Source of the DNA: Alphaproteobacteria bacterium
GTDB taxonomy: Bacteria > Pseudomonadota > Alphaproteobacteria > JABAAW01
NCBI GenBank assembly: GCA_965216605.1
Contig: CBDCGG010000002.1
Location: forward strand, 1,369,245 to 1,433,244
Direction: 5' to 3'
Length of the DNA stretch: 64,000 nucleotides
A program made the position numbers and the translations under genes. The notes beneath the pieces are model-generated. The model was not told the origin of the DNA. It was given only the letters and a program-made list of their open reading frames with translations, and ran no database searches. This document shows, piece after piece, positions 288 to 56,155 of this stretch (the first letter of the stretch is position 1; the number at the start of each line of letters is the position of its first letter).

Positions 288-1730
288 ATGCGTTTTGTGA
301 AGGCTCGATTTGTTGTGGCGTTGTTTTTTTTCTGTTCGGCGATCGTGCTTGTGGGGGGAGTAGGCTCGGTGTTCTTTCTGCCTTGGGTTTACAGCGCCGA
401 GGTTTTGGATGGCGAGGAGATCGTTGTGATACGCGCGCCGCAGGGGGGGATCGTGCGCTCTTTGCGCGTGGTGAAGGGGGAGAAGGTGCGTGCCGATACC
501 ATCGTAGCCGAGATCGTCACCACCGACATTCAGCCTCCTGATAGGCTTGTCGCGCGAGAGATTTTGTACAAGCGTGTCGAGAATGCTCGTCTCGAATCGC
601 AGAGGGGGGGATTGAAGCAGATATTGCTGAAGCCAGATTTACGGGCGCGGATTGCGCTCGATCGAGATTATTCTCGCTTTGTGGGGGAGCAGCGTCGTTT
701 GTTTCGTGCATTTTTGAACAAGATAAAGGTGGCGACGAAATTGCTGCGCGAAGAGAGAGCAAGGCTCGATGTTCAGGTGAGGGGTATGCAGGGGGAGATC
801 GCCTCCTTGGCAGAGCGGCAGATTTTGTTGGAGCAAGAGCTGACAACAAAGGGCGGAGCAGAGTTGCGCGCAGAGACAAAGCGGAACCGTCGATCCGCTC
901 AAAGGGCTCGCAAGCAGTTGCGGGGGTTACAGCGCAAGGTTAGCTCTAACGCGCAGGCTTTGTTGGATGAAACCTTGCGGGTGCGGCGTGAGGAGAGCGT
1001 TGATATGGAGGTGCTAAGGGAGCAATTGAATGCGTTGTATGCTCGGATCGGCTTGCCGAAAAATGCCTTCGACAGGTTGGGGCTTGTCGATGTTTCGGGC
1101 GGAGGGCAGCGATTGCGGAGGTTGATTGCGCGGACATCAGGTCGTGTTGTCAAGGTTGCCGAGGGAGTGCTACCTGGCGATGTGGTGGTTAGCGGCGAGG
1201 TTCTTGCGGAAATTTTGCCGAACAGCAGACGCTCAAGCTATCGACTGAGGCTGCAGGATACGGAGGGGTTGTTGGCGGGCGTGATGCAGGAGGCGGGAGA
1301 TGGAGATGGAAATGGCAAGGGAGTTAAAAACAGAAAGATAGTTCGGGTTCGCTCGATGCGTTGCGAGGATTTTCCTGATACGCTTTCTTGGAGTGGGAAT
1401 ATCGAGAGGGGGGGGATATTGTTGTTGGGGCGCAGTATGTTGCGGGAGGTTGATTTTCCTTCGGTGAGGCGGGGGGGGCGTTGTTCGGTTGTGGTGGGGT
1501 TGGGGGGGGGGATTAGCGAGCGAGGAGATTTTGTGATGGGCTTTGTTAGGGGAGTTTTTGGGGGCGGGGTAGATTGGCGTGGTGTGTGGGGGGGGCTGGG
1601 GGGTATGAGGGATTTAGCGATGGGGGGAGGGGAGGAGTTATGGGGTAGGTTAGATTTTTTGCGGGGGGAGGGGGGAGAAGTTATATGGAATAACTTTGTT
1701 GAGGATATTAATAATTCTAAAAATAAATAA
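288..1730 (+). CDS. HlyD-family type I secretion membrane fusion protein, divergent, with a Gly-rich low-complexity C-terminus
   Basis: N-terminal TM helix, IRAPQGGIVRSLRVVKGEKV hairpin half, long coiled coil, second half IARTSGRVV...GDVVVSGEVLAEILP; GGAGG upstream of the ATG. Confidence 0.7.
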   Translation: MRFVKARFVVALFFFCSAIVLVGGVGSVFFLPWVYSAEVLDGEEIVVIRAPQGGIVRSLRVVKGEKVRADTIVAEIVTTDIQPPDRLVAREILYKRVENARLESQRGGLKQILLKPDLRARIALDRDYSRFVGEQRRLFRAFLNKIKVATKLLREERARLDVQVRGMQGEIASLAERQILLEQELTTKGGAELRAETKRNRRSAQRARKQLRGLQRKVSSNAQALLDETLRVRREESVDMEVLREQLNALYARIGLPKNAFDRLGLVDVSGGGQRLRRLIARTSGRVVKVAEGVLPGDVVVSGEVLAEILPNSRRSSYRLRLQDTEGLLAGVMQEAGDGDGNGKGVKNRKIVRVRSMRCEDFPDTLSWSGNIERGGILLLGRSMLREVDFPSVRRGGRCSVVVGLGGGISERGDFVMGFVRGVFGGGVDWRGVWGGLGGMRDLAMGGGEELWGRLDFLRGEGGEVIWNNFVEDINNSKNK

Positions 1731-1809
1731 TGTAGATATTACAATAAAAATATAACTTATTATGAATGTAAACGCAAGACGAACAAGCCTTAAGATTAGT
1801 TTTGGGCGA

Positions 1810-1983
1810 AGTGAGTTTTGCGCATGGGGCACGAGCCGTCTTGCTCGCCTCGCAAAAAAGCGAGGCGAGAGGCGAGTGGCGGAGCGAGCAAAGCGAGCGA
1901 GCGTAGCTTAGAGCAGACGAAGTTCCCTCGCAAAAAGCGCACTGCGTGCGCTATGGCGTGCGCATGTTTTGCACCCGTGAAGA
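1810..1983. repeat. GC-rich palindromic intergenic element, copy A
   Basis: Perfect 10-bp stem CTCGCCTCGC-A6-GCGAGGCGAG (1844-1869), hairpin AGCGCAC-TGC-GTGCGCT (1936-1952), and block GCGTGCGCATGTTTTGC (1956-1972) identical to 10181-10197. Confidence 0.65.
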
Positions 1984-3447
1984 CTAGCCGCACAGCCTCT
2001 TCCTCACCCGCCTCTCCCCCAACAACCCCATAATCCCCCCCACATCCGGCCCACGCTCACAGCCCAACAATCCCCTCCGCAACGGCACATATAACAATCT
2101 ACCCCCAATCCCCAATGCCTCCCCCATATCCCCCAAAAATTTAACCCAATCTATACTACTCTTATCTTCTCCCCCATCCCTTTTCTCCTCTAACAATTTC
2201 TTAACAACAGCTCCCATTTCCTCCGAAAGCAACTCCCGCCCTATCTTCGCGTCGTCCTCCGTAAAACAACGCCTCACCCAATCGCTAATCCCCAAAACAT
2301 CATCGCAATTTTCACAAAACAATCGCCAAAACTTCTCTCCGTCCTCGCTATCCAACAATTTAATCTCCTCGTCTTCTAACCTCTCCCGTATTTCCCCCCA
2401 GCTCATTTTAGAGATAACCCGCCGATTCACCTCGCGCAAATGCCCCGTGTCAAACATCGGAGAAGCACGACCAAAATCTGCAAACGAAAAATCTCGCACC
2501 ACCCCCTGCCAATCCTCGTCCCCCCGCGCGGTCTTGCTGCTGCCCAACTTCGCCAAATACAACAGCAACGCCCTCGCCTCAATTCCCCCCTCGCGCAAAG
2601 CTCGCAACGACAAACTGCTAGCCCCCTCACGCTTTGACAAAGGAGAGTCTCCCCCCTCTCCATCGCCGCTCCGCAACAGAGGGACATGCGCCATGCGCGG
2701 CACTTTGTATCCTAAAGCCTCGAACAGCTGAGCTTGCACCGCCGAGTTCGTCGCATGATCCTCGCCGCGAACAATATGCGAAACCCCACACTCGCCGTCA
2801 TCGACAACCGAGGTCAGCGTGTACAAAGGCTGCCCGTCCTCGCGCACCAAGACAGGATCGGAGGTGTGCGCAAAGTCAAACCTGCTCTCGCCGCGAAATA
2901 GATCGCGCACCACAAGCGATCGATGCTCCAACTTGAATCGCCAATGCGGCTTGCGTCCCTCAGCCTCGAAAGCACGCCTCCGCTCAGGGTCGAGCGAAGC
3001 GCGATCATAAACAGGAGGACGGTGCGAGCGCACCATCAAGCGTCTTGCCAACGCCAGCTCTTCTGCCGTCTCGAAACAGGGGTAGAGCCTGCCATCGTCG
3101 CGCAGCTTCTCCCGCGCTGCCTCGTAGAGCGCAAGACGCTCCGACTGGCGAAACTTCTTGTCCCACGCCGCGTCATCCCGCTCCCGCCCCGTCAAGCATC
3201 CTGTCAAGAGCCATGTTAAGTCTTCCTCGATCGCCTCCTCATACATCTGCTCCGAGCGCGCCTTGTCCGTGTCGTCTATCCGCAGCCAAAAAGCCCCTCC
3301 GCGCTGCCTCGCAAAAAGAAAGTTCAACACCGCAACACGAGCATTCCCCGCGTGCAAGTATCCCGTCGGACTGGGAGCAAAACGAAGCAAAACCTCGCTC
3401 TCCGCTTCTTGGCTCGCAGATTTCTCGTTCGCTGATTCTTGTTTCAT
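1984..3447 (-). CDS. gltX: Glutamate--tRNA ligase
   Basis: RFAPSPTGYLHAGN (HIGH motif), LRIDDTD, SHIVRGEDH, PLSKR (KMSKS-like). Confidence 0.95.
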   Translation of the reverse strand: MKQESANEKSASQEAESEVLLRFAPSPTGYLHAGNARVAVLNFLFARQRGGAFWLRIDDTDKARSEQMYEEAIEEDLTWLLTGCLTGRERDDAAWDKKFRQSERLALYEAAREKLRDDGRLYPCFETAEELALARRLMVRSHRPPVYDRASLDPERRRAFEAEGRKPHWRFKLEHRSLVVRDLFRGESRFDFAHTSDPVLVREDGQPLYTLTSVVDDGECGVSHIVRGEDHATNSAVQAQLFEALGYKVPRMAHVPLLRSGDGEGGDSPLSKREGASSLSLRALREGGIEARALLLYLAKLGSSKTARGDEDWQGVVRDFSFADFGRASPMFDTGHLREVNRRVISKMSWGEIRERLEDEEIKLLDSEDGEKFWRLFCENCDDVLGISDWVRRCFTEDDAKIGRELLSEEMGAVVKKLLEEKRDGGEDKSSIDWVKFLGDMGEALGIGGRLLYVPLRRGLLGCERGPDVGGIMGLLGERRVRKRLCG

Positions 3448-5231
3448 CTAATCCTGCTCCTGCTCTTTGTCGTTTTCCCAGCAAAAGTGATTGACGATCG
3501 GATAGCGTCGATCGCGTCCGAACGCGCGCGCGCCCAACTTGGGTCCAGGCGGCGATTGGAAACGCTTATGCTCGGCTCTCCGCAACAAGCCCGCAACCCG
3601 CTGCCGCAAGGTAGTATCGAAGGTAGCATCGAGAGAAACATCCTCGTTTTTTTCACCCTCGATCAGCTCGCGCAAGACCGCATCCAGCTGCTGGTAAGGT
3701 GCGAGCGTATCCTCGTCGCGTTGATCGAAGCGCAACTCTGCGCTCGGTGCTTTCGTCAGAATGCGCTCAGGAATCACCGCAGAAGATTCGACAGAGGATA
3801 AGCCAGATGATCCTGATTGTTGCGCATTGCGCCACCGCGCCAAAGCATAGACCTCCGTCTTGTACAGATCCTTCAACGGAGCATACCCCCCCCCCATGTC
3901 GCCGTAGAGCGTCGTGTAACCCGTCGCAACCTCCGATTTGTTGCTGGTCGCCAGCAGCAGCGCGTCGTGGCGGTTCGCATACGCCATCAGAAAGATCGCA
4001 CGCAAGCGCGCCTGAATATTTTCAAAAACAACCCCCTCGCATGTCTCGCCCAACGCCTGCTCGAAGCCGTGCGTCACCGCGCGCATCGCCTCCTCAATCG
4101 CAATCTCCTTGAGCGAGATTCCCAAGCGCGTCGCCAACAAACGCGCATCCTCACAGCTCTCCTCGCTCGTGTAAGGGGAGGGCAAAAACAGCGCACGCAC
4201 ACGCTCCGCCCCTATCGCCTCGCAGGCAAGCAGCGCGCACAAGGCAGAATCGATTCCCCCCGAAAGTCCCAACACAACCTCGCGCAAGCCGCTTTTGCGC
4301 GCGTAGTCTCGAATGCCCATTTTTATTCCCTGCCAGCCGAGCTCCTCCCATGGTGGTAGCGAGGCGGTAGCGAGGGTGATTTTTTGTCCTTGTCGAGAGG
4401 TGTAAGCCCTCCGTCGTGAAAGCGAAAGAGCTCGATCGCCTCTTCAAAAAAGGGCATACGGTAAATTTTCTCGCAAGATTCTTTGCAAGATTCTTCTTCC
4501 TCTGGATTGAGCGCAAAGGAGCCTCCGTCGAAGAGCAGCTCGTCCTGCCCACCCACTTGGTTTACATACAGCAGAGGTACGCCATGACGGGCGACAAGCG
4601 CGTTCGCCACCTTGCTGCGTCGCAACGCCTTGCCGTGCTCGAAGGGCGAGGCGTTCAGCACGAGAAAAAGATCCACCTCGCTACGCGCGAGCGATTCTGC
4701 CACTTCAGGCTGCCACATGTCCTCGCAGATCATAATCCCCAGCCGCAAATCCTTGAATAGGAGGGGGGTGCTTTCCGTGTCGCTTGCTGAGAAATATCGT
4801 TGCTCGTCAAAAACACCATAGTTAGGAAGCAAGCTCTTGTCGCACCAACTCGGTGGCGCGTTGGGAGTGAGCAGCACGGCAGAATTGAACAGATTTTTTA
4901 TTGAAGAAGAACTAGCACGCTTCGTCTCGCGGCGCGGCGCGCCTAGCAGCAGGCTCGCGCGCCCGTCGGCATCGATGGCACGCTGTAGGGTTTGCAAGCC
5001 TGCCTCGCAAGCGTCTAAGAAGCTGTCGTCGAGCAGCAGGTCGTCGGGCTGATAACCGCAGATCGCGAGTTCCGAGCAAACTGCCAAATCCAGCTTCGGC
5101 TCGACGCGCAGGGCTTGTTCGCGCGCGCGCAACAAGGATTGCACATTGCCTTGCACATTACCTTGCCCATTACCTTGGATGTCTCCCAGCGTTGGATTGC
5201 TCTGCACGGCGGCTAAAAGCAGCGTGGGCAA
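3448..5231 (-). CDS. nadE: Glutamine-dependent NAD+ synthetase, split by a single frameshift at ~4354-4376 (glutaminase domain 4323-5231, synthetase domain 3448-4320)
   Basis: The N part has nitrilase-fold motifs (SELAICGY, K..LPNYGVFDEQRYF, ICEDMW, NQVGGQDELLFDG). The C part has LGLSGGIDS, ENIQARLR, NKSE and KAPSAEL. The start (TTG 5231) is estimated. Confidence 0.9.
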
Positions 5232-5247
5232 ACGGAGTGTGGGCTTT

Positions 5248-5910
5248 TCAGTGTCGATGCTTCGCCTCGGCAGGAGGTTTTTGCGGATACTTCTCGTACG
5301 CTGCCTTGACCTTCTCCCGCCCCCCCATACGCGCAAGCCACGCCTTGGCGTGGGGAAAGTTCTCGATTGCAATCCCCTGCGCCACATGGCGAGAGGGGTT
5401 TGTCCAAGGGTAGGTGGCGAAGTCTGCTATCGAGAGTTCCTTGCCGCCGAGCCACTCGCTTTCTTGCAAGCGACGATTCAAAACACGATAGAGCCGTTGC
5501 GCTTCGGTGGTGTAGCGTTCCAAGCCGTAGGCTATGCGCTCAGGCGCGTACATGGCGAAATGGTGCGCCTGTCCCAGCATGGGTCCGAGGCTGGCGTTCT
5601 GCCAAAAAAGCCACACGAGCGTCTCCATACGCTCCTTCGTGTCCGAGCTGATAAATCGCCCCGTCTTCTCGGCGAGGTAGAGCAGGATCGCTCCCGATTC
5701 GAAGAGCGCGATCCTGCCGCCGTCCACAGCCTCGTCGTCGGTCAGGGCGGGAATCTTGTTGTTTGGACTGATCGCCAAGAAGGCTTCCGAAAACTGCTCG
5801 TCCTTGGAGAAATCGATCTCGACCGCCTTATAGTCCGCCTCCAGCTCCTCCAGCAAAAGGATGGGCTTCATGCCGTTGGGCGTCGATGAGTTCGTATAAA
5901 GTGTTAGCAT
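5248..5910 (-). CDS. Glutathione S-transferase family protein (YfcG/Nu-class-like)
   Basis: TPNG motif, SPNNKIP, LFESGAILLYLAEK, LGPMLGQ, SIADFATYPW. Confidence 0.9.
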   Translation of the reverse strand: MLTLYTNSSTPNGMKPILLLEELEADYKAVEIDFSKDEQFSEAFLAISPNNKIPALTDDEAVDGGRIALFESGAILLYLAEKTGRFISSDTKERMETLVWLFWQNASLGPMLGQAHHFAMYAPERIAYGLERYTTEAQRLYRVLNRRLQESEWLGGKELSIADFATYPWTNPSRHVAQGIAIENFPHAKAWLARMGGREKVKAAYEKYPQKPPAEAKHRH

Positions 5911-6488: not shown

Positions 6489-7814
6489 ATGGTACCAAGA
6501 AAGCAACGCCGCCCGCACGGCACGGACTCGAAGGACAAGTCGTCCGATTCCCTCGTTCCTCGACGAGGTTGCGTCGTCTATGTAGATCTGTCTAGAGTAG
6601 GGCGTAGCCTTTGCGACCACTCTAGAACGCCAAAAGAATCACAACGAGACCCTAAACATTGTCTCGAAGAAATGGCGAGGCTCGCTCGCTCATCGGGCTT
6701 GTCGCTCCAAGTTGTCTCAAAACAAACGCTTGTCGTCAATCGAGCGTCGGCAGCAACCCTGCTCGGTAAAGGGCAGGTAGAAGCCTTGCGTACGCTCGTC
6801 AAAGATCTGACAATCGAAATTGTCTGTCTCGACGCGCCGCTCGGTGCGCTGCAACAGCGCAACCTAGAACGCGCGTTGGATTGTCGCGTGCTCGATCGCA
6901 CCGCGCTCATCCTGACAATCTTCGCCGCTAATGCGCAAAGCCAAGAAGGACGCTTGCAAGTCGCGCGCGCGCAATGCGCATGGCAAAAATCAAGGCTCGC
7001 GCATGCTTGGCAACACTTAGAACGACAAAGGGGAGGGCGAGGATTCCTCGCAGGACCGGGAGAACGACAGATAGAACTCGATAGGCGCACGCTTGAAAAA
7101 ACTCAACAAAGCCTCGATAAAAAACTACGAAAACTCAACGCACGACGATCGCTGCAACGCCGTGCGCGCCGAGGATGCACGCTCGCTGCCTTGACGGGCT
7201 ACACAAATTCCGGCAAATCGACCCTGTTCAACCGCCTGCTCGCGCTACCGCAAGGCATGCGTCAAGCCGTGAAACAACAACCCTTCCTCACCCTCGATAC
7301 GAAGATCGCGCGTTGGCGCGACGCTTCCTCATCGGCTAGCGGAAACGGCAGCACGACATTGCTGCTGGCAGACACCGTAGGATTCATCGCCGACCTGCCC
7401 ACCTTTCTGATCGACGCATTCAATGCCACGCTGGAAGAGGTCGTGCAAGCCGACATCGTCTTGCATGTGCGCGACATCGTAGCCCAAGACAGCGCCGAGC
7501 AGAAACACGAGGTGTTGCGCGTCTTGCAACGATTGGGCTGCAAAGGCAGAATCGTCGAGGTATGGAACAAAGTCGACAAACTGCCACACTCGCAACGCTT
7601 TGCTACCCTAGAAGCTGCCAGAGCCTGCGACGCTGTTCTTGTCTCTGCGCTTTCGGGCGAGGGGTGTGAGGCGTTGCAGAGTCTCGTCGCAGGACTTTCT
7701 AACGCAGGATTGCCTCACGCAGAATTTTCTCCCGCAGAATTTTCTCAAGTAAGCGCGCCTCTAGAATCCTTTGCGGCACACCCATCGATAGACGGCGAAG
7801 GCGAGCAGCCCTGA
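6489..7814 (+). CDS. hflX: Ribosome-splitting GTPase HflX
   Basis: HLERQRGG..GPGERQIELDRR, GYTNSGKS, TLD, DTVGFI, NKVD; follows hfq. Start estimated at ATG 6489; the 3' end overlaps the MATE gene. Confidence 0.92.
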   Translation: MVPRKQRRPHGTDSKDKSSDSLVPRRGCVVYVDLSRVGRSLCDHSRTPKESQRDPKHCLEEMARLARSSGLSLQVVSKQTLVVNRASAATLLGKGQVEALRTLVKDLTIEIVCLDAPLGALQQRNLERALDCRVLDRTALILTIFAANAQSQEGRLQVARAQCAWQKSRLAHAWQHLERQRGGRGFLAGPGERQIELDRRTLEKTQQSLDKKLRKLNARRSLQRRARRGCTLAALTGYTNSGKSTLFNRLLALPQGMRQAVKQQPFLTLDTKIARWRDASSSASGNGSTTLLLADTVGFIADLPTFLIDAFNATLEEVVQADIVLHVRDIVAQDSAEQKHEVLRVLQRLGCKGRIVEVWNKVDKLPHSQRFATLEAARACDAVLVSALSGEGCEALQSLVAGLSNAGLPHAEFSPAEFSQVSAPLESFAAHPSIDGEGEQP

Positions 7815-9589: not shown

Positions 9590-9688
9590 TTCTTATTAGT
9601 CTCTTCCTTGCTCTTCCTTGTCTCTTCCTCGTTTGCGCCTTCTTGTGTATTGTAGCATTCTTGTCAAGCTTTGGGGGAGGAAATTGTT

Positions 9689-10120
9689 ATGCAGTCGCTT
9701 TTGCAGCCTTTGGTCGATCAGTTCAACGCGCTGTTGCAGCCGATGTATGATGCCTTGGAGCAGATGCGTTTTTATATCGCTCTGATTCTGAATGCTATTG
9801 CGGCTTTGTGTTTTGCTCAGACTTTTGAGAATCGTGCGACGGCTATTTCGCGTTTTGTTTATTTGTTTGTGTTGTGGTTTTTGTTGCCCACAGCTCTTTC
9901 GCTTGTGGACTCTTTCTATCAGTTGCTCTGGTTTTCGAGCAGGGAGAATTTCACGGGGTGGCTTTGGCTTGTGAAGCTGATTGTTTTGTCGTTGTTTGCT
10001 TGTGCTTACCTTGCGGCTGCTTTTTTTGCGGTTCGCAAAAAACATGTCCTCGACTCTCTGCTTTTTCTTACGGCGGCGGGGCTGATGGTGCATCTGCTTT
10101 ATGGCTACTTCGCGGCATGA
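9689..10120 (+). CDS. Hypothetical integral membrane protein (~4 TM)
   Basis: GGAGG RBS at 9676-9680, ATG 9689, four hydrophobic stretches; no family recognised. Confidence 0.55.
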   Translation: MQSLLQPLVDQFNALLQPMYDALEQMRFYIALILNAIAALCFAQTFENRATAISRFVYLFVLWFLLPTALSLVDSFYQLLWFSSRENFTGWLWLVKLIVLSLFACAYLAAAFFAVRKKHVLDSLLFLTAAGLMVHLLYGYFAA

Positions 10121-10144
10121 CTGCGAACGGCAAGCCGTGCGATT

Positions 10145-10215
10145 TTGAATAAGAGGCTACGCGCGTACATGATGTTACTAGCGTGCGCATGTTTTGCGTC
10201 CGTCAATACTCAAAG
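10145..10215. repeat. GC-rich intergenic element, copy B
   Basis: AAGAGGCTACGCGC (10151-10164) is identical to 54386-54399; GCGTGCGCATGTTTTGC (10181-10197) is identical to 1956-1972. Confidence 0.65.
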
Positions 10216-10224
10216 CCAGTCAAA

Positions 10225-10644
10225 TTACATGCCCAGCGCGTAGCGCGCGTCCTCAGACATCATGTCTGGCGTCCAAGGTGGCTCCCAAGTCAGACTCACA
10301 CACACCCTTCCAACCCCTCCCAAACACGCCGCCGCATCCGCAATCTGCTGCGGCAACTCCCCCGCAACAGGACAAGCCGGTGCTGTGAGCGTCATCAGAA
10401 TATCCCAATCTCCACCCCTCCCCTCAACAGCCCTGATCTCGTAAATCAACCCCAAATCATAGATATTTACTGGAATCTCAGGGTCGAAAACCGTCGATAA
10501 CGCCGCCACAATCGCATCCATAGAAGCAAGCTCTACACCTTCTCCCAATTTCTTGTCCAATGTTTCTCCGCTAATAAACTCGCTGCCCTCAGGAACGCTG
10601 GGCTGCATAGAATCCATCGCGTAAGGATTCGTAAAGTGCGTCAT
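10225..10644 (-). CDS. sufT: SUF system Fe-S assembly protein (DUF59/SufT)
   Basis: VFDPEIPVNIYDLGLIY, MTLTAPACPVAG, WEPPWTPDMMSEDAR; start chosen at MTHF after the sufS stop. Confidence 0.9.
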   Translation of the reverse strand: MTHFTNPYAMDSMQPSVPEGSEFISGETLDKKLGEGVELASMDAIVAALSTVFDPEIPVNIYDLGLIYEIRAVEGRGGDWDILMTLTAPACPVAGELPQQIADAAACLGGVGRVCVSLTWEPPWTPDMMSEDARYALGM

Positions 10645-10669
10645 CGCATCTGCTCCATCAAGAAAGCCA

Positions 10670-11992
10670 TCAAGCAAGCATAGAGCGTGCCTTCGCCAAA
10701 GCCTCGATGAAAGCCTCGCACTCCTGCTCGCTGTTGTAAAGAGAGAGCGACACACGCAAACAACCCTCAAGCCCATAGTGTCGTACAAGAGGCTCCGCGC
10801 AGTGAAAACCCGCTCGGCAACAAAAACCCTGCTTGTCCAAAAGTGCGGCGAGATCAAAAGCATTCAGCTTGTCGAGCGCAAAAGAAAAAATAGGCGCGCG
10901 CTCCCTCGCCGTGCCGAGCAAGGTCAGTCCCTCGATCGCTTGCAAGCGTTTTTGCATGAACTCGCCGAGTCGACTCTCGTAAGCCGCAATAGCCTCAATA
11001 CCAATACCTTTGTCGATGCTTTGGACGAACTTTAACGCCGCGCCCAGCCCAACGGCTTGGGCGATCGGCGGCGTTCCCGCCTCGAACTTCCACGGCAATC
11101 GGTTCCAACTCGCCTCCTGATAAGAAACCCGCTCCACCATTTCTCCGCCGTACTGCCACGGCGGCATCGCCTCCAGCAATTTCTCCTTGCCATACAGCAC
11201 GCCGATCCCCGAAGGAGCAAAAACCTTGTGTCCCGTGAAAACATAGAAGTCCGCATCCAACGCTCGCACATCGACAGGTTCGTGCGGCACAGCTTGGCTA
11301 CCGTCTACCAATACCAAAGTATCGTGCCGATGCGCGATGGCGATGAGCTCGGCTACAGGGTTCTTCGTCCCCAACACATTCGAGATATGCGCTAGCGCAA
11401 CGAGTGCTATATCGTTCGTCTGTAAAATATGCTTGTAAGCCTCCAAGTCTATCTCGCCCGCCTCCGTGATCGGCATCACCAAGAGTTTTGTATCGCAGCG
11501 TGTAGCAAGCCGCTGCCACGGCACAAGGTTCGAGTGGTGTTCCATCATCGTTACAGCCAGCGCAGCCTTTCGCTTGAAATCTCGCGCTAATATGTCGCCC
11601 CAGCTGTTGACGACTAGGTTGATCGCCTCGGTGGCGTTGCGCGTAAAGACGATCTCATGCACCTCCCTCGCCCCCAAATGCTGTCGCACAGCCTCGCGCG
11701 CGCCCTCGTAGCGTTCGGTCGCGCGTTCCGCAAGCGCATGCGCGCTACGGTGAACATTGGCGTAGTCGGTTGCGTAAAACTCGGCGAGCGTGTCGATCAC
11801 CTCGCGTGGCTTCAGCGCGCTCGCCGCACTATCGAAATAAACGAGCGCATTCCCTTGCTCATTTTTCTGCTTCAAGGCAGGAAATACCTCGCGCATTGAT
11901 GCCAGAGGAAAATCTTCCGCTCTATATCCCTCTTGCTTGTCCTTTTGCGTTGAGGGTTTAAGGTTCTGCTCGGCTATTGCGATGTTGCTCAT
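10670..11992 (-). CDS. sufS: Cysteine desulfurase SufS
   Basis: VYFDSAAS, EHHSN, FTGHKVFAPSGIG (PLP Lys), EAGTP, RAGFHCA. Confidence 0.95.
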   Translation of the reverse strand: MSNIAIAEQNLKPSTQKDKQEGYRAEDFPLASMREVFPALKQKNEQGNALVYFDSAASALKPREVIDTLAEFYATDYANVHRSAHALAERATERYEGAREAVRQHLGAREVHEIVFTRNATEAINLVVNSWGDILARDFKRKAALAVTMMEHHSNLVPWQRLATRCDTKLLVMPITEAGEIDLEAYKHILQTNDIALVALAHISNVLGTKNPVAELIAIAHRHDTLVLVDGSQAVPHEPVDVRALDADFYVFTGHKVFAPSGIGVLYGKEKLLEAMPPWQYGGEMVERVSYQEASWNRLPWKFEAGTPPIAQAVGLGAALKFVQSIDKGIGIEAIAAYESRLGEFMQKRLQAIEGLTLLGTARERAPIFSFALDKLNAFDLAALLDKQGFCCRAGFHCAEPLVRHYGLEGCLRVSLSLYNSEQECEAFIEALAKARSMLA

Positions 11993-48759: not shown

Positions 48760-49356
48760 TCACAAGCTTAATCTGTGCTCCAACGCCTCCAGTGCCAACA
48801 GCGTAGCCTCCCTCCTCACTGCCTCACGCCCTTCCTCTGTCCTTAGCCGATGCTCCGCAACGCTTATCTCTTCCTCCCCCTTCGCCTCCGCAAACCCCAC
48901 CCCCACAAAAACTAGCCCAATCTCCTCCTCTCCCGCACGCGCTCCCACTTCCGCCGCCACTCTTCCTACCGCCGCCGCTCCTCCCGCCAGTCCTCCTGCC
49001 ACTCCCCCTGCCACTCCCCCCGCATAGCCCGTCACAGCCACCCCCAAAAGTCTCCCCCCTCCCCACACTTCCTCCCGCGCAAGCACCCCCCGCACCATCG
49101 CGCGCGCAACGCACGCGCTCACCGCTCCCTCGCGCACTAACACCGAGCGCGAAACCCCCAGCAGCCCAATTTTAGCTCCATTCCCGTAACTCACGATCCC
49201 CCCCCCGTAGACCCTCGACGCGCCCGCAACCCCCGTCAGATACCCCCCCACCATACCCCCCGTCACAGACTCCGCCGTCACCAATCGAACACCCCCCGCC
49301 GCCGCCTTCGCCACAACACGAGACGCAACCCCCAACAGCTCTGCCTCATCCCTCAT
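48760..49356 (-). CDS. cinA: CinA C-terminal domain protein (NMN deamidase PncC-like)
   Basis: VTAESVTGG, GIVSYGNGAK, GAVS..VARAM, VTGYAG, GLVFVG, REAVR. Confidence 0.85.
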   Translation of the reverse strand: MRDEAELLGVASRVVAKAAAGGVRLVTAESVTGGMVGGYLTGVAGASRVYGGGIVSYGNGAKIGLLGVSRSVLVREGAVSACVARAMVRGVLAREEVWGGGRLLGVAVTGYAGGVAGGVAGGLAGGAAAVGRVAAEVGARAGEEEIGLVFVGVGFAEAKGEEEISVAEHRLRTEEGREAVRREATLLALEALEHRLSL

Positions 49357-49365
49357 AAAATTCCA

Positions 49366-49938
49366 TCACAGAAAAAACCTATACCCCACTCCCAACCCCC
49401 AGCCCAAAACACCCCCCCCCAACAACACCTCCAAAAGCCACAGAAAGCCTACCGCCCAAACGCCCGCCGCAACATCGTCCAACATCACTCCCCAGCCGTT
49501 CTTCCAGCGTCTGTCTAGGTAACTCGCAGGAAACGGCTTGACAATGTCACAAAGCCGAAACAACACAAACGCCGCAGCCCAACCCCACAATCCTCCTAAC
49601 CCCTTCAGAAAAGCCACAAAAAAATCAACAGGCGAAGCAACCAACGAGGCAAAAAGCGACGCAACAGACGCATCGACAAACAAGGCAGGCACAATAAACG
49701 CAGGCGCAAAAACAAGCACCCCCGCCATCGCCGCAAACTCGTCGATCACAATGTCCGAGTGATCCGCTTGTCCCGTGCGCTCGCCGTAGCCCTGCGCGCT
49801 AGGAACGCCCAGCGCAAAACTCGCCATCGCCAACAGAGCGCAGCCAACCTTGCCTGCACCCGCAACCTCCAACAAGGCGCAACAAACAACCGCCGCTCCA
49901 GATCCCCAAGTGCCAGAGGCAGGACGCAAAAAGCCCAC
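49366..49938 (-). CDS. pgpA: Phosphatidylglycerophosphatase A (true start probably further upstream, up to ~49996)
   Basis: ASGTWGS, DHSDIVIDE, FVLFRLCDIVKPFP, GWGVMLDDVAAG; adjacent to cinA. Confidence 0.88.
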   Translation of the reverse strand: MGFLRPASGTWGSGAAVVCCALLEVAGAGKVGCALLAMASFALGVPSAQGYGERTGQADHSDIVIDEFAAMAGVLVFAPAFIVPALFVDASVASLFASLVASPVDFFVAFLKGLGGLWGWAAAFVLFRLCDIVKPFPASYLDRRWKNGWGVMLDDVAAGVWAVGFLWLLEVLLGGGVLGWGLGVGYRFFL

Positions 49939-50016
49939 GCCGCCGCAAGTCGCTAAAAAAGTGTTAAAAAAAGAGCGCAGAGAAAATCTTAGTCAACTAA
50001 AATTCTTAGCGAACTT

Positions 50017-51533: not shown

Positions 51534-52988
51534 ATGTCGAAGCGTCAAGATGCTCCCCAAGAAAATCCTTACGACATCGCCATCGTCGGAGGAGGACCTG
51601 GAGGCTATGTCGCCGCCATTCGCGCTCGACAATTGGGATTGCACACCCTGCTGATCGAGCGTGAGGCACTAGGCGGAATTTGTCTCAACTGGGGCTGTAT
51701 TCCTACCAAGGCTCTGCTGCGCACCGCCGAGTTGTGGCGCAGCTTGCAGAAGATGGAGCAGTTCGGCTTGAGCGCAGGAAAAGAGAGCAACTTTGACAGC
51801 AAGCGAATCGTTGCGCGCTCTAGGGCTGTCGCTGCCAAGTTGAACGGCGGGGTCGAGATGCTGATGAAGAAGAACAGCGTAGAGGTTCGCTATGGTAATG
51901 CGAGATTGGGGGGGAGGGGAGAGATTGTCGTTGCGGAGGCTGCGGGAGGTAAGGGGGAGGTTATCAAGGCGAAGCACATTATTTTGGCTACGGGCGCACG
52001 CGCTCGTGAGTTACCTAGCGTTCCGATCGACGGAGATATTGTGTGGGGTTATCGGGAGGCGATGGTCGCCGAGAATTTTCCTAAGCGTCTTCTTGTTGCG
52101 GGCGGAGGAGCGATCGGCTTGGAGTTTGCGAGTTATTTCTCGGCTTTTGGCGTTGAGGTGATCGTCGTGGAGGCGGCAGAGCGCATTTTGCTCCACGAGG
52201 ACGAGGAGGTTGCGGGCATTCTAAAAGCCTACATGGAGAAAGAGCAGGGTATTAAGTTTCTGTTGGGAGTTTCGATCGAAGGCGTAGAAAAGCAGAAGGC
52301 GGGAAGTAACAAGGGAGGAGGTGTACTTGTGAAGTTGGGGAACGGAGATACTTTAGAGGTTGATCGTGTTTTATCTGCTGTGGGGGTTGTGGGAAATGTC
52401 GAGGGATTGGGGTTAGAAGAGGCGGGGGTTGCGTTCGATAGGGAGCGAGGCGTGATTGGGGTTGACGGATTATTGCGGACGAATGTCGAGGGAATTTATG
52501 CGATTGGGGATGTTGCGGGTGCTCCGATGTTGGCGCATAAGGCGTCGCACGAGGGGGTTGTATGTGTCGAGTCGATTGCGGGAGAGGATGTTGCGCCGAT
52601 AGTAAGGGAGCATATTCCTAGTTGTGTCTATACTTCTCCGCAGGTTGCGAGCGTTGGGATGAGCGCGAGGGCTGCCGAGGCGGAGGGATGTAAGGTAAGG
52701 ATCGGGAGGTTTCCATTGGGGGCGAATGGGAAGGCGATTGCGATGGGGGAGGAAGTTGGATTAGTTAAGGTTGTGTTTGAGGAGGTTAGCGGGGCATTTT
52801 TGGGGGCGAGCATGGTTGGGGGAGAGGTTGTGGAGATGGTGCAGGGATATGGGATTGCTTTGGGGATGGAGGCGACGGAGGCGGAGTTGATGGGGACGAT
52901 CTTTGCGCATCCGACGATGTCGGAGGCGATGCACGAGGCGGTATTGGATGGATGGGGAAGGGCACTGCATGTGCCACCGAGGAAATAA
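51534..52988 (+). CDS. lpdA: Dihydrolipoyl dehydrogenase E3
   Basis: GGGPGGY, GGICLNWGCIPTK, GGGAIGLE, AIGD, HPTMSE. Confidence 0.97.
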   Translation: MSKRQDAPQENPYDIAIVGGGPGGYVAAIRARQLGLHTLLIEREALGGICLNWGCIPTKALLRTAELWRSLQKMEQFGLSAGKESNFDSKRIVARSRAVAAKLNGGVEMLMKKNSVEVRYGNARLGGRGEIVVAEAAGGKGEVIKAKHIILATGARARELPSVPIDGDIVWGYREAMVAENFPKRLLVAGGGAIGLEFASYFSAFGVEVIVVEAAERILLHEDEEVAGILKAYMEKEQGIKFLLGVSIEGVEKQKAGSNKGGGVLVKLGNGDTLEVDRVLSAVGVVGNVEGLGLEEAGVAFDRERGVIGVDGLLRTNVEGIYAIGDVAGAPMLAHKASHEGVVCVESIAGEDVAPIVREHIPSCVYTSPQVASVGMSARAAEAEGCKVRIGRFPLGANGKAIAMGEEVGLVKVVFEEVSGAFLGASMVGGEVVEMVQGYGIALGMEATEAELMGTIFAHPTMSEAMHEAVLDGWGRALHVPPRK

Positions 52989-53119
52989 GACAGATAATTT
53001 TTCTGTGGATAACTTGGATTTTGCGGTTGCCTTTGTTGGAGTTTTTCGTAGAGTTGCTAACAACGCACGCGTTTTTGCGCAACAAGCGTATGTGCACGGG
53101 AGGATAGAGAGGTGGGGGA

Positions 53120-54340
53120 AAAATTAGGCGAGCGTATAAAAATTTTCTGTATACGATTAGGGAACAATCTTGTAAATCTCTTTATAGAGTCCATTTATCC
53201 TATATTTGCATTGCGATTATTTTTTTTAATCAGTATTTATCGTCATACTTGCTATTTATATTTTTTTGGGTTATTTAAAAGGAGTTACTGCCATTAGCGT
53301 TTAGTTTCTTTAGTTTGCTTTGTTTATAGCATTTGGCTTTCTTTGCTTATATCTTGGTCTCCTCTTGCAAAACATCGTGGTCATGAAATCGTTGTTTGTT
53401 GCAGTCGTGAATTTTCTCCCCAGCATTTACAGTTTAGCGGAATATCTTATATTTCTGGCTTATATCTTTGCAATCAAAAAAACAGAATTGAAATTATAAA
53501 AAAAATATTTCTTCAAACTAATGGAAATTTTCTTGAATTAAAAAAGCAAAGCGAGCCATTGATCCTTCCTCCTTTTGGAGGACAAAAGCATTGCTTTAAA
53601 ATTGTCAGATACATACGCAGAAAACTTAACATCAAAAGATATTTCTGACAATTATTTGTTGATCCTGTCAAAGGGCTTCATGTTGTAATTGAGAAAATAT
53701 CGGATGAGAGCAATCCTGTTTTGTACCATATTGCGAACAACAATCCAGTTGGAATTATTTCGAAAGAAAAAATAGCTGAAGAAATGAATGCGCGTGATAA
53801 ACATTTGCAGATTGTAATAAAAACTGACAAAAATTGATTTTCGCTCGATCTTTTTGAATCTGACGATTGATAGTGCTTTAATGGTTTTTATAACGATTAT
53901 GAATTTAAAAATATTATGCTAAAAATAAATCTTTTGAAATAACAGCGTTTTTCGTGCTTACAATTTTAATTTAATGAAGATACGAAGTAAATTTCACTCT
54001 CAGTATTTTTGGCCAATCAATTTTTGAAACGAACTGATATGTATAAAAAATTAATGCTAAAAGAATTAGAAAAATTTGCAACGTTTTGATTCAAAAGAAG
54101 ATGTTAAAAATTCAGTTTGGAGAAAAGGTTCATGAATTTAAAAAAACTTTTTTATGACAAACACAATCTAACTGAAAGTCAAATTGAGGTCACTTCCAAA
54201 ACAGTTATTTTTTTGGATTTCTGGTTAACAAATCTTGGGGAAAAAACTATTCTTAAAAAAAATGTAAGACAATTTATTCTTCTCTTTATAAAACTAAAAA
54301 TTTAAAAGAGTACTTACAAGAATCTGATAAAAAATCTTGG
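53120..54340 (+). pseudogene. AT-rich degraded foreign DNA with fragmented ORFs
   Basis: Markedly lower GC than the flanks. ORF 53343-53648 continues in frame past TGA for about 60 more codons (QLFVDPVKG...KTDKN); a further fragment lies at 54117-54305. Confidence 0.45.
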
Positions 54341-54344
54341 CTAA

Positions 54345-54572
54345 AGCGCATTGCGCAAAAAATTATGTGCGTGCGCTTGGTAAACAAGAGGCTACGCGCT
54401 TCGCTTCGCTCGTGCGTAGAAAGCGCTAACGCGCTCCGCTGACGCGGGGTCTTTTACGAGGGACTGCGTCCCTCGCGCTCCCTATGCGCAAGACTGCGTC
54501 TTGCGAGGGCGAGGGAAACACTAATGCGCTCCCTATGCGCTACGCGCACGATGTTGACCGAACGCGAGAATC
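54345..54572. repeat. GC-rich multi-hairpin intergenic element, copy C
   Basis: Hairpins CGAGGGAC-TGC-GTCCCTCG (54457-54475) and CGCAAGAC-TGC-GTCTTGCG (54487-54505); direct repeat GCGCTCCCTATGCGC (54475-54489, 54526-54540); blocks shared with copy B. Confidence 0.7.
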
Positions 54573-54574
54573 CC

Positions 54575-56155
54575 CTACCGACTATCGTCCTTGTCCCTCT
54601 TCACCCGCGTCTCAATCCTGTTAATATACTCCGCAACTTCTTCCTCCTTTGCCTTATTCAGCATCGTCTCTGGACTCTTCGCAACGACCTCCTTCCATAC
54701 CCTATTCGCCCTCACATCCGCCGTCTCCGCCCCATCCTCATTCCAATTCTCAAAGTTACGCCAATCAGATAAAATAGGCTCGTAAAATGCCTTGTCATAC
54801 CTCTCTAATGTATGCTCCGCCCCAAAGTAATGTCCCCCCGCACCCACCTCCCGCATCGCATCCATCGCAATAGAATCCTCGTCCGTAGGAAATTTCGCAA
54901 ACAATCTCGCCATCATCTGCAACATCTCAACATCGATAATAAACTTCTCATACGAAGCAACTAATCCCCCCTCCAACCACCCCGCCCCATGCAGTAAGAA
55001 ATGACACCCCCCCAACATCGCTCCCCATAAAGACATCTGAGACTCGTAAGCACTCTGCGCATCAGGAGCATTAGACGCATTAACATTCGACGACCTAAAC
55101 GGAACATTATACATCCGACACAACTGACCCGTCGCAATCGCAGCCTGCGTATACTCAGGAGTCCCAAAAGCAGGAGACCCCGAACGCATGTCAACATTGG
55201 AAGTAAATCCTCCATAAACAACACAAGCCCCAGGTTTCACAATCTGCGCCAATACCATGCCCGCCAAAGCCTCCGCATGCTGCTGCGTCAAAGCTCCCGC
55301 AATAGTCACAGGTGCCATCGCGCCCGCCAAAGTAAAGGGAGTGACAATAACAACCTGCCCCAACTCCGCCATCACCATAATGCCCTGCGCCATCAACTCG
55401 TCTAACTGCAACGGAGAATTCATGTTCACAACCGTATAACAACTAGGCTCTTTCAATAACTGCTCCTCGCTGATACCGCGAATCAAGCGCACGAGCTCGA
55501 TCGCCTCCTCTATCTCCTTCCTGCGCTGACTGCGCACAAAAGGAACCTTGTCGCTGTGCGTCATATAACAACGAACCGTCTCGACATGCCGCATCTTCAC
55601 AGGGATATCTAACGGCTCGATCAAAGTTCCTAAAATATGAATCACATCGTAATACTGAGCCATTTTTGCAAGCTCGATAAGCCCCGCCTTGTCTCCGTCA
55701 CGCCGCCCTCTGTCCAAGTCGGACAAAAACGGCGTTCCCGATACCGTCCCGAACACAACCCGCGAGGACTCTCCGCCCACACCTCCGCCCATCGTTACAT
55801 TGTTCGTCGGATTTTTTGCATACATCGAAAACTTGCTCGGCGCATGCTTCATCCAAGTATCGATCATCTCGCTAGGAAAACGCACCTGCCAGTTCTCTTC
55901 GTCCACCTCCGCTCCCCCTCGCAAGTAGTGCGCTCGCGCCTCCTCCGAGAGCACCTTGATCCCCACCTCCTGTAACAATGTCTTCGCTCGCTCGTCGATG
56001 AGAGCAACCTCGTCCGAAGACAAAATCTTCAGCGGAGGGTAGGGGTTCTCCAACTGCACATAAGGCGACGCGACAGGCGCAGCCGCCAAGTTCTCGCGTC
56101 GCTCGCGCAATCTTGCGAAACGCTGTTTGCGCCCGCTTGTCTCGGTTCTCGTCAT
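54575..56155 (-). CDS. Trimethylamine methyltransferase (MttB) family protein, non-pyrrolysine (glycine betaine methyltransferase-like)
   Basis: NSPLQLD, TPFTLAGAMAPVTIAGAL, FTSNVDMRSGSPAFGTPE, DAQSAYE, HGAGWLEGGL; no in-frame amber codon; start placed at MTRTE. Confidence 0.9.
   Translation of the reverse strand: MTRTETSGRKQRFARLRERRENLAAAPVASPYVQLENPYPPLKILSSDEVALIDERAKTLLQEVGIKVLSEEARAHYLRGGAEVDEENWQVRFPSEMIDTWMKHAPSKFSMYAKNPTNNVTMGGGVGGESSRVVFGTVSGTPFLSDLDRGRRDGDKAGLIELAKMAQYYDVIHILGTLIEPLDIPVKMRHVETVRCYMTHSDKVPFVRSQRRKEIEEAIELVRLIRGISEEQLLKEPSCYTVVNMNSPLQLDELMAQGIMVMAELGQVVIVTPFTLAGAMAPVTIAGALTQQHAEALAGMVLAQIVKPGACVVYGGFTSNVDMRSGSPAFGTPEYTQAAIATGQLCRMYNVPFRSSNVNASNAPDAQSAYESQMSLWGAMLGGCHFLLHGAGWLEGGLVASYEKFIIDVEMLQMMARLFAKFPTDEDSIAMDAMREVGAGGHYFGAEHTLERYDKAFYEPILSDWRNFENWNEDGAETADVRANRVWKEVVAKSPETMLNKAKEEEVAEYINRIETRVKRDKDDSR

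Follow-up and report, generated by a model that had tools for sequence, protein, structure and literature searches.

What process could strip a DNA strand of nearly all its cytosine where it runs towards an intergenic site, and do the same to the opposite strand where it runs towards that site from the other side? This question is raised by a 64,000-nucleotide stretch of the genome of an Alphaproteobacteria bacterium (assembly GCA_965216605.1, contig CBDCGG010000002.1, positions 1,369,245 to 1,433,244 of the forward strand), which we refer to as the window. Its + strand is G-rich and nearly devoid of C at 1401-1700, and 2001-2400 is the mirror image of this; GC skew over 200 bp reaches +0.84 at 1501-1700 and -0.83 at 2001-2200. 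A first-pass annotation, made from the letters of the window, had described such composition halos around three sites, and its four hand counts are exact (36 G and 4 C at 1561-1620, 1 G and 27 C at 2101-2160, 26 G and 3 C at 52741-52800, and 6 G and 30 C at 54961-55020). Our analysis confirms that the skew is real and non-random. We read the halos as a mutational footprint, neither a coding nor a transcriptional feature, probably left because the 3'-ended strand flanking the site has been single-stranded again and again.

Mirror-image skew in the window and along the chromosome

We expressed the skew at a site as D, the GC skew of its left arm minus that of its right arm, using 400-bp arms. 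For the genome of the window (G000; a 1.72-Mb assembly of four contigs with 55% GC and a chromosome of 1.63 Mb), 20,000 random chromosome positions served as the null; D had a standard deviation of 0.204 and was at least 0.9 at 0.27% of them. The three sites of the window, an internal control and an arm that stands alone are as follows.

288 to 1730, + strand: left arm of site 1, the 3' two-thirds of an HlyD-family open reading frame (ORF; Pfam)
1731 to 1983, no strand: centre of site 1, a 253-bp intergenic region
1984 to 3200, - strand: right arm of site 1, the 3' part of gltX (Pfam)
7761 to 7814, no strand: internal control, the overlapping convergent ends of hflX and a MATE gene (Pfam)
9600 to 10120, + strand: weak left arm of site 2, from the skew profile
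10121 to 10230, no strand: centre of site 2, from repeat matches
10231 to 11000, - strand: right arm of site 2, a SufT-like ORF and the 3' end of a class-V aminotransferase (SufS-like)
48760 to 49940, - strand: one-sided arm, cinA-C and pgpA (skew profile, Pfam)
51600 to 52990, + strand: left arm of site 3, the 3' part of lpdA (Pfam)
52991 to 54574, no strand: centre of site 3, an AT-rich insert and GC-rich dispersed repeats
54575 to 56000, - strand: right arm of site 3, the 3' part of an MTTB-family methyltransferase gene (Pfam)

D is 1.43 at site 1 (borders 1730 and 1984), the top-ranked of 45 skew inversions on the chromosome, 1.05 at site 3 (52990 and 54575) and 0.49 at site 2 (10120 and 10250), the last being the weaker version that had been reported near 10.2 kb. 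The left arm of site 1 is G-rich and C-poor on the + strand, with a skew that drops from 0.84 in its final 200 bp to about 0.27 at 1 kb and then to 0.11 at 2 kb; the right arm is C-rich and G-poor on the same strand, with a skew of -0.78 at the border and about -0.12 by 1-1.2 kb. At site 3 the left-arm skew is 0.5-0.58 across 800 bp and about 0 by 1.4 kb, and that of the right arm goes from -0.58 at the border to -0.11 by 1.5 kb. The skew of the window arms thus dies away over about 1-1.5 kb, in agreement with the 0.5-1.5 kb given in the first-pass annotation. That annotation called the left arms G/T-rich. The loss of C that it described holds, but with G at about 50% and C at about 5% the arms are purine-rich as well as G-rich, unlike what transitions alone would leave. 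At site 2, the left arm shows mostly T over A (AT skew about -0.5) with a GC skew of just 0.1-0.24, and the border skew of the right arm is -0.42.

The halos had been said to run through gltX, lpdA and sufT. Pfam matches bear this out for gltX and lpdA; the small SufT-like ORF at 10230-10620 (- strand) takes its label from sequence reading only, its SufS-like neighbour having a Pfam match. The skew has not broken the gltX ORF, whose C-terminal anticodon-binding domain can still be recognised. The hflX/MATE junction behaves as the control it was proposed to be, with a D of -0.04 and no repeat. In the one-sided arm, the + strand is C-rich (-0.59 over 800 bp), and there is neither a repeat nor a left arm. 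This arm starts right after the stop codon of a giant RTX ORF, with a spacer of just 18 bp, and the RTX gene itself possibly occupies an old slot. The ORF (18715-48741, + strand) has 10,008 codons, made up mostly of 27-nt (9-residue) Gly/Asp-rich repeats of the RTX type.

Across the chromosome, all 45 loci with D above 0.9 switch from plus to minus skew. No locus of reverse polarity (D below -0.8) was found on it at gaps of up to 400 bp, and the 13 reverse cases, which emerge only once the gap is widened to 800-1600 bp, are the stretches that separate one halo from the next. In all 45 profiles a G-rich left arm and a C-rich right arm fade away from a centre that is either about 200 bp long or a 1-1.6-kb AT-rich insert. 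Both arms are present in both presumed replichores, with a mean arm asymmetry of about +/-0.03. Cumulative skew across the chromosome is weak, and we found no dependence of the G000 halos on replichore or fork direction.

We then compared junctions between genes by the orientation of those genes and by the presence of repeats. The gene calls are crude (ORFs of at least 150 residues, scored by codon usage), and junction skew is measured on the + strand over the 300 bp that adjoin the junction on each side (left/right).

Convergent junctions: with repeats +0.32/-0.34 (n=68); without repeats +0.05/-0.10 (n=92)
Divergent junctions: with repeats +0.19/-0.19 (n=31); without repeats 0.00/+0.02 (n=126)
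Junctions in tandem on the + strand: with repeats +0.21/-0.24 (n=28); without repeats +0.02/+0.04 (n=357)
Junctions in tandem on the - strand: with repeats +0.24/-0.30 (n=25); without repeats -0.06/-0.04 (n=285)

A D above 0.6 occurs at 53 of the 152 junctions with repeats and at 15 of the 860 without (odds ratio 30, p = 3e-34); for convergent junctions the counts are 34/68 and 8/92, and for non-convergent ones 19/84 and 7/768. The proposed tie between skew and repeat-bearing junctions therefore holds genome-wide, and the halo is not an equal property of all convergent gene ends. It is not a strict tie, however. Repeats are missing from 15 halos, and D does not exceed 0.6 at 99 of the 152 repeat junctions, so a halo neither requires a repeat nor follows from one.

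Because a C-rich strand is poor in stop codons and could give false ORFs, ten gene calls at non-convergent halos were checked against Pfam, and nine matched families over nearly their full length. The divergent halo between CobT (- strand) and CobS (+ strand) measures +0.52/-0.52; other genes at such halos encode a class II ribonucleotide reductase (-) paired with MlaD (+), PutA (-) and an AIR-synthase-related protein (+). The coding strands of outward genes at these halos are C-rich at their 5' ends, the opposite of the convergent case, which indicates that the direction of transcription is not the determinant.

Silent sites tell the same story. Four-fold degenerate sites were read on the strand that runs 5' to 3' towards the centre. 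In genes that read inward, four-fold C falls from 0.39 at 2.5-3 kb to 0.07 at 0-400 bp, G rises from 0.27 to 0.54 near the centre, and T rises from 0.18 to 0.26-0.32. Genes that read outward have an equal four-fold skew at the DNA level (0.76-0.85 within 400 bp). Skew at codon positions 1 and 2 is weaker, at 0.43-0.52, and the four-fold excess is back to baseline by about 2 kb. At the protein level, we compared the last 120 residues of 23 inward genes and the first 120 residues of 9 outward genes with residues elsewhere. Gly makes up 15.1% of the inward set, 3.1% of the outward set and 8.6% elsewhere, and Pro 2.2%, 9.1% and 3.9%, respectively; Glu reaches 10.0% in the inward set and Thr 9.1% in the outward set. 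C-termini are thus pulled towards Gly, Val and Glu, as had been noticed in the window, and the mirror case is that of N-termini rich in Pro, Thr, His and Gln. The pattern in silent sites and proteins looks like a DNA-level pressure moderated by purifying selection. Together, the junction classes and the four-fold sites uphold the claim that the skew is centred on an intergenic site, symmetric between strands and independent of transcription.

Related genomes, direction of substitution and the centres

Two further species of the genus share the gltX halo, namely G004 (87% DNA identity) and G002 (71-75% identity to G000). It is weak or absent on the gltX side in G001 and absent from six genomes of other families. 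Given that G004 and G002 were assembled independently, the halo is not an assembly artefact. The complete 1.90-Mb contig of G004, which aligns to 88% of the G000 chromosome, carries 60 plus-to-minus inversions and none in reverse. Forty of the 45 G000 halos can be anchored in G004, and all 40 are kept there (mean D of 1.06 in G000 and 1.10 in G004); the other five could not be anchored.

To ask which bases change, differences between G000 and G004 were polarised by parsimony with G002 as the single outgroup. The polarised set comprises the 700-bp arms, defined on G000, of 14 of the 45 halos, and the outgroup covers 126 of 160 kb in eight 20-kb stretches. Rates, given per ancestral site, combine third positions with intergenic sites and refer to the strand running towards the centre. 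In the G004 lineage they are as follows.

C>T 0.080 versus G>A 0.020, ratio 3.9
A>G 0.063 versus T>C 0.010, ratio 6.1
C>G 0.047 versus G>C 0.004, ratio 12
G>T 0.029 versus C>A 0.011

Background substitution within these stretches is close to symmetric (C>T 0.041, A>G 0.025, C>G 0.005 and G>T 0.011). The bases that change in the G004 lineage are therefore C, A and G, and T does not change more often. The G000 lineage has no such asymmetry and is losing G (84 G>A versus 13 A>G; 22 G>C versus 2 C>G). Changes in the direction that builds the skew (forward) and in the opposite direction (reverse) total 52 and 216 in the G000 lineage and 171 and 132 in the G004 lineage (chi-square 80). Reverse changes outnumber forward ones in 14/14 halos in the former, and forward changes equal or exceed reverse ones in 9/14 halos in the latter. 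With distance from the centre, the ratio of forward to reverse rates changes as follows.

0-300 bp: G004 3.36, G000 0.72
300-700 bp: G004 2.75, G000 0.47
700-1200 bp: G004 1.92, G000 0.54
1200-2000 bp: G004 0.97, G000 0.75
2000-3000 bp: G004 0.94, G000 0.87

The asymmetry in the G004 lineage is gone by about 1.2 kb. The G004 rates predict a stationary composition of G 0.28, C 0.06, T 0.56 and A 0.10, in which a strong skew is kept; the G000 rates predict G 0.20 and C 0.16, with the skew almost gone. Strand asymmetry is thus ongoing in the G004 lineage, and in the G000 lineage the process appears to have stopped, leaving the halos to relax. These results bear on several proposals of the first-pass annotation. 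The strand that would be exposed by 5'-to-3' resection is indeed the strand that loses C and, in the G004 lineage, also A, so that on each side the 3'-ended strand is changed at C and A as expected of a resected break. The expectation of asymmetric polarised substitutions is borne out in the G004 lineage, and in the G000 lineage the asymmetry is undetectable. Deamination of single-stranded DNA could account for the asymmetric C>T and A>G changes of the G004 lineage, but C>G and G>T are also asymmetric there, and transitions alone are insufficient for the gain of G.

Even the background is off compositional equilibrium in this comparison: in both lineages, background third positions imply a stationary GC content of about 0.4, compared with a present value of 0.62. 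This reflects either a loss of GC across the genus or a bias in the parsimony.

At the centres, 44 of the 45 loci have BLAST matches elsewhere in the genome, mostly 30-200 each. The repeats are short and GC-rich and form a mosaic family of 297 clusters, 99 kb in all. At site 1, an AT-rich stretch is followed by a 166-bp dispersed repeat (1770-1935) and a short second module (1956-1984). The 166-bp unit contains a perfect 10-bp hairpin and has about 13 near-full copies in the genome, all 13 of which lie in intergenic blocks with positive D (0.09-1.44; above 0.4 in 9/13). The site-1 element as a whole folds no better than shuffled sequence (z = -0.72), and no Rfam family reaches its gathering score anywhere in the 64-kb window. 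At site 2, dispersed repeat sequence makes up 95 bp of 10100-10700. At site 3, a 1.2-kb AT-rich insert (about 29% GC, approximately 53150-54330) without a long ORF lies between lpdA and the GC-rich repeats, which are confined to about 54340-54570. The orthologous centre in G004 is 1472 bp long with 46% GC, and from its sequence the site 3 insert looks like a decayed or swapped cassette. A single repeat element common to the three sites, as first supposed, is not what we observe: sites 1 and 2 have only a 17-nt exact match in common, and no dispersed repeat was found at the left border of site 3 or at the one-sided arm at 48.76 kb. The three centres of the window carry different modules of a mosaic repeat family. 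In the arms, no 5-8-mer is over-represented beyond composition (90 arms in G000, 120 in G004); the best 7-mer, AGGGGAA, appears in G004 alone. Runs of 5-6 G are mildly in excess in the arms (269 vs 191 and 121 vs 79).

The comparison of G000 with G004 bears out the suggestion that the centres are hotspots of insertion and deletion. Centre lengths in the two genomes are 467 and 7944 bp, 400 and 5059 bp, 542 and 4073 bp, and 200 and 627 bp, respectively, and that of site 1 is nearly equal (200 and 192 bp). Among 506 collinear alignment junctions, 78 differ by at least 500 bp; these have a mean D of 0.40, with D above 0.3 in 44/78 and below -0.3 in none. Repeat DNA at a depth of at least 8 amounts to 195 kb in G004 and 98 kb in G000. 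Ten low-GC ORFs specific to G004, chosen for their low GC and not checked for location at halo centres, were submitted to Pfam. Four have no family; the six that matched are two N6-methylase/specificity fusions, three GmrSD-type proteins and one HindVP restriction enzyme.

Four public sequencing runs from one study, examined as contigs, hold 25-44% of the words sampled. Their contigs mix a near-identical strain with a strain that is about 8-9% diverged, show extra depth over repeats, end at repeats, and yield 949 differences, 40 of which were itemised. In the skewed tail of the HlyD-family ORF there is an in-frame length variant at 1292-1341, where the public-run contigs drop 48 nt and have 6 other letters. 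Beyond the right arm of site 1, two minus-strand ORFs of 290 and 354 residues lie 2 nt apart at 3448-5387.

We searched the genus for enzymes that might act at the centres. Y1/RAYT (PF01797), IS110-type DEDD transposases (PF01548) and TnpB (PF07282) are each absent from five of five genus genomes, with the Y1/RAYT control matched in 6/14 reference genomes, and SbcD (TIGR00619) is absent from seven of seven. For tyrosine recombinases (PF00589), G001 has a single match and each of the other four genomes searched has two; these are presumably XerC/D. An element-directed system of the kind first proposed was thus not identified in the genus by searches for Y1/RAYT, IS110-type transposases, TnpB and SbcD, which did not extend to deaminases. 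Among the repair genes, addB and recJ are present in 7/7 genus genomes and UDG and mutS in 6/7. A strong MutY match occurs only in G002 and G003; G000 and G004 have just a weak HhH-type match of 224-230 residues, and the lack of a strong MutY may contribute to the G>T changes. Both G000 and G004 also lack a Y-family polymerase, and the two genomes do not differ in addB, UDG, recJ, mutS, Y-family polymerase or mutY.

Finally, 220 ORFs of at least 150 residues in G004 (136 non-overlapping) have no homologue in G000. Pfam analysis of 20 of these returned restriction-modification proteins, GmrSD, HindVP, a Cas9-like protein, helicases, transporters and nitrate reductase, and none of the 20 stands out as a candidate for a G004-only factor. 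Blocks of about 150 kb at approximately 363,900-518,300 of G004:C1 have no counterpart in the G000 assembly; among other genes, they carry those for the Cas9-like protein (RuvC_III, HNH_4, Cas9_a), an Eco57I-like methylase, an SNF2/PLD helicase-nuclease and TctA transporters. The respiratory nitrate reductase, at 851-855 kb of G004, is also G004-specific.

Proposed recurrent exposure of one strand and its rivals

In the mechanism that we favour, the strand running 5' to 3' towards a hotspot, a site packed with mosaic hairpin repeats and, in relatives, probably with exchangeable defence cassettes, would be repeatedly single-stranded for about 1 kb on each side. The opposite strand would be removed 5' to 3' from a recurrent break or nick in the hotspot, as AddAB or RecJ could do. 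C, A and G are prone to deamination or oxidation in single-stranded DNA, and these damage-prone bases would mutate on the exposed strand (C>T, C>G, A>G and G>T) with no rise in their complements. C would be purged and G and T enriched, mirror-wise on the two sides, and protein ends would drift towards Gly, Val, Glu and Arg, or towards Pro, Thr, His and Gln in genes reading away from the centre. The polarity is informative here. Resected ends of an incoming linear fragment, or a displaced strand, would be expected to give the opposite polarity, so the 'ends-in' polarity that we observe points to a resident chromosome opened at the centre. A break, a nick and a blocked polymerase share one predicted polarity, and cleavage is not demonstrated by it. 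We put the chance that a break or nick in the hotspot, followed by resection, is the source of the exposure at about even. It is preferred to a passive block because the cis arrays persist in G000 and yet only the G004 lineage is active, and because the centres are where the genomes gain and lose DNA. Given the same cis sequence, the difference in activity between G000 and G004 calls for a trans-acting difference. One speculative version, which we regard as unlikely, is that the hairpin arrays are cut by a trans-acting system that still works in the G004 lineage but has been lost or silenced in that of G000, that repair copying from a sister or a foreign homologue swaps defence cassettes in a homing-like manner, and that the halos are the scar. 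If this were true, halos would mark and date active and extinct hotspots in any genome.

Several observations weigh against this mechanism. Today's G004 rates lead to T-rich arms (T 0.56) and not to G-rich ones (G 0.28), which implies that the past process differed or that a GC-favouring force adds to it. Reverse changes in the G004 lineage occur at about 0.3-0.6 of background, a deficit that one-sided damage alone would not predict and that hints at a component of fixation bias, or at noise. Arrays adjoin 19 of 23 tested G000 arms, yet there is no asymmetry there (45 forward, 169 reverse), so the cis sequence alone is insufficient; for G004, arms with an adjacent array (n=20) have 156 forward and 115 reverse changes, and those without, which number only three, have 13 and 17. 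The polarisation comes from parsimony with one outgroup in 14/45 halos. The enzyme searches (Y1, IS110, TnpB, PF00589 and SbcD) found no nuclease or recombinase acting at the centres. C>G changes usually need a translesion polymerase, and a Y-family polymerase (IMS) is absent from 6/7 genus genomes. Rearrangement junctions, some of which are artefacts of the 4-kb query chunks, fall at strict halos in 4/29 cases versus 8.9% expected, though 14/29 have a D above 0.3. Moreover, we infer the single-strandedness as cause, the break or nick as its origin and the enzymes that would act from a comparison of sequences. A separate candidate for the low reverse rates, CpG or other neighbour context, was rejected, as background C>T is 0.076-0.084 in all four 3' contexts.

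The strongest rival, which we consider a possible but rather doubtful source of the exposure, dispenses with a break. Hairpin arrays would block polymerases on both templates and leave daughter-strand gaps in which the template 5' of the block stays uncopied, the + strand being exposed on the left and the - strand on the right over a length set by the Okazaki or re-priming distance. Such gaps would fit the geometry equally well, the 1-1.5-kb scale is within the range of bacterial Okazaki fragments, and exposure at each replication would easily exceed the background mutation rate. The centres are rich in hairpin repeats, and with SbcD absent in 7/7 genus genomes hairpins would escape their usual nuclease. 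What speaks against gaps is that the G000 lineage is inactive with its arrays in place, and that at site 1, where the centre is nearly identical in the two genomes, only G004 is active. Likewise, the left border of site 3 and the 48.76-kb one-sided arm are free of repeats, and the site-1 element does not fold better than its shuffles. Gaps on leading and lagging strands would hardly be equal, yet the arms are symmetric in both replichores.

Selection or fixation bias is less probable still. Fragile sites might favour a G-rich 3'-ended strand, for example through Chi-like or G-quadruplex motifs that stop AddAB and so protect essential genes. The G-rich strand is where Chi must lie for a central break, and the mild excess of G runs fits, as does the G004 lineage, in which forward changes exceed the background and reverse changes fall below it; current mutation rates alone would not keep G at 0.5. 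Against this stand the lack of any specific 5-8-nt oligomer beyond composition in G000 or G004 arms, the peak of the effect at silent sites and its cost in amino-acid changes in essential proteins, and a smooth 1-kb gradient without an obvious selective reason. In addition, C>G is up about 9-fold and G>C down just about 2-fold, and one selection coefficient cannot yield both.

Transcription-linked bias, whether through lesions in the non-template strand, through R-loops where genes end or through C-rich sites at which Rho loads onto read-through transcripts of convergent genes, is very improbable. Most strong halos do lie at convergent junctions, where the coding strand is G-rich, and terminal GC skew with R-loops is known in eukaryotes. 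The orientation test nevertheless rules this reading out: convergent junctions without repeats, including hflX/MATE, have little or no skew, the coding strand at divergent and tandem repeat junctions is C-rich at the 5' end of outward genes, and four-fold skew is alike in inward and outward genes. Least credible of all are local replication termini or origins, or chromosome-scale replication skew, since the plus-to-minus switch has the polarity of a terminus but recurs 45-60 times per 1.6-1.9 Mb, cumulative skew over the whole chromosome is weak, and both arms occur in both replichores independently of position.

Known systems and significance

Bacterial replication skew and the heavy-strand gradient of vertebrate mitochondria show what long exposure does to a strand: the strand that is single-stranded for longer turns G/T-rich, driven by C>T and A>G. 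Replication skew, however, acts on the scale of the replicon, with one origin and one terminus switch, whereas the halos are 45-60 local terminus-like switches, each 2-3 kb wide. We know of a skew amplitude of 0.8 otherwise only in mitochondrial DNA. Kataegis in yeast and cancer also passes from C- to G-coordinated mutations on either side of a break, and damaged single-stranded DNA is its source of C>T and C>G, but it consists of single events in single cells that are often driven by deaminases; the halos are accumulated, fixed and lineage-wide.

Several bacterial systems resemble the centres of the halos. REP, BIME and REPIN sequences are short, GC-rich hairpin repeats that occur between genes in many copies, often as mosaic clusters between convergent genes, and are associated with RAYT transposases. 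The halo centres are likewise dispersed, extragenic, multi-copy repeats, but unlike REPs they are found without Y1/RAYT in 5/5 genus genomes, and we know of no compositional halo around REPs. Defence islands and the minimal mobile elements (MMEs) of Neisseria are hotspots at which cassettes vary between relatives in fixed intergenic slots flanked by core genes, without an integrase. The halo centres resemble such slots in that G004 has restriction-modification, GmrSD and HindVP genes and no extra integrase; a literature search, which was not exhaustive, found no description of a compositional scar on the genes that flank MME-type hotspots, nor, within the same limit, of local mirror halos in bacteria. 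Other systems fit less well. Integrons with attC arrays would require an integrase or extra tyrosine recombinases, of which the PF00589 search gave no sign in the genus. Palindromes cleaved by SbcCD would require SbcD, present in 0/7 genus genomes; clusters of Chi would require an oriented oligomer beyond composition, and the arms of G000 and G004 have none. Hairpin-targeting elements of the IS110/IS1111 or IS200/IS605-TnpB kind would require a transposase or TnpB, found in 0/5 genomes.

By analogy, the closest known process is the mutagenesis of resected DNA at programmed eukaryotic breaks, which likewise affects the two strands unequally. At the hotspots of human meiotic breaks, C>N and A>N changes are reported on the strand exposed by a resection of 1-2 kb (Hinch et al. 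2023, PMC7615360), and C>G and A>G peak off-centre, at 700-800 bp (PMC7615360). The halos share with these hotspots the mirror asymmetry, the changes at C and A with prominent C>G and A>G, and the scale of 1-2 kb. The human breaks leave an excess of de novo mutations that barely alters composition, whereas the halos are a rewriting on the scale of equilibrium, with C reduced to about 5-7%, in a bacterium. The halos also differ from the human case in that G>T is asymmetric as well, no break-making enzyme is known for them, and they have no central symmetric zone that can be scored.

If the halos are indeed the scar of recurrent exposure, local and long-lived single-strandedness can dominate the mutational equilibrium of bacterial core genes, and the termini of essential proteins, such as GluRS and LpdA, can be reshaped without being broken. 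Codon-usage, GC-skew and selection analyses that assume only transcription or replication strand bias would need to take warning from this. The contrast between sister lineages in which the process is on and off would offer a handle on the responsible factor through phylogenetic profiling. The halos would also provide a read-out, from sequence only, of chromosome sites that are repeatedly opened, and could thereby be used to find hotspots of recombination and insertion in uncultured bacteria.

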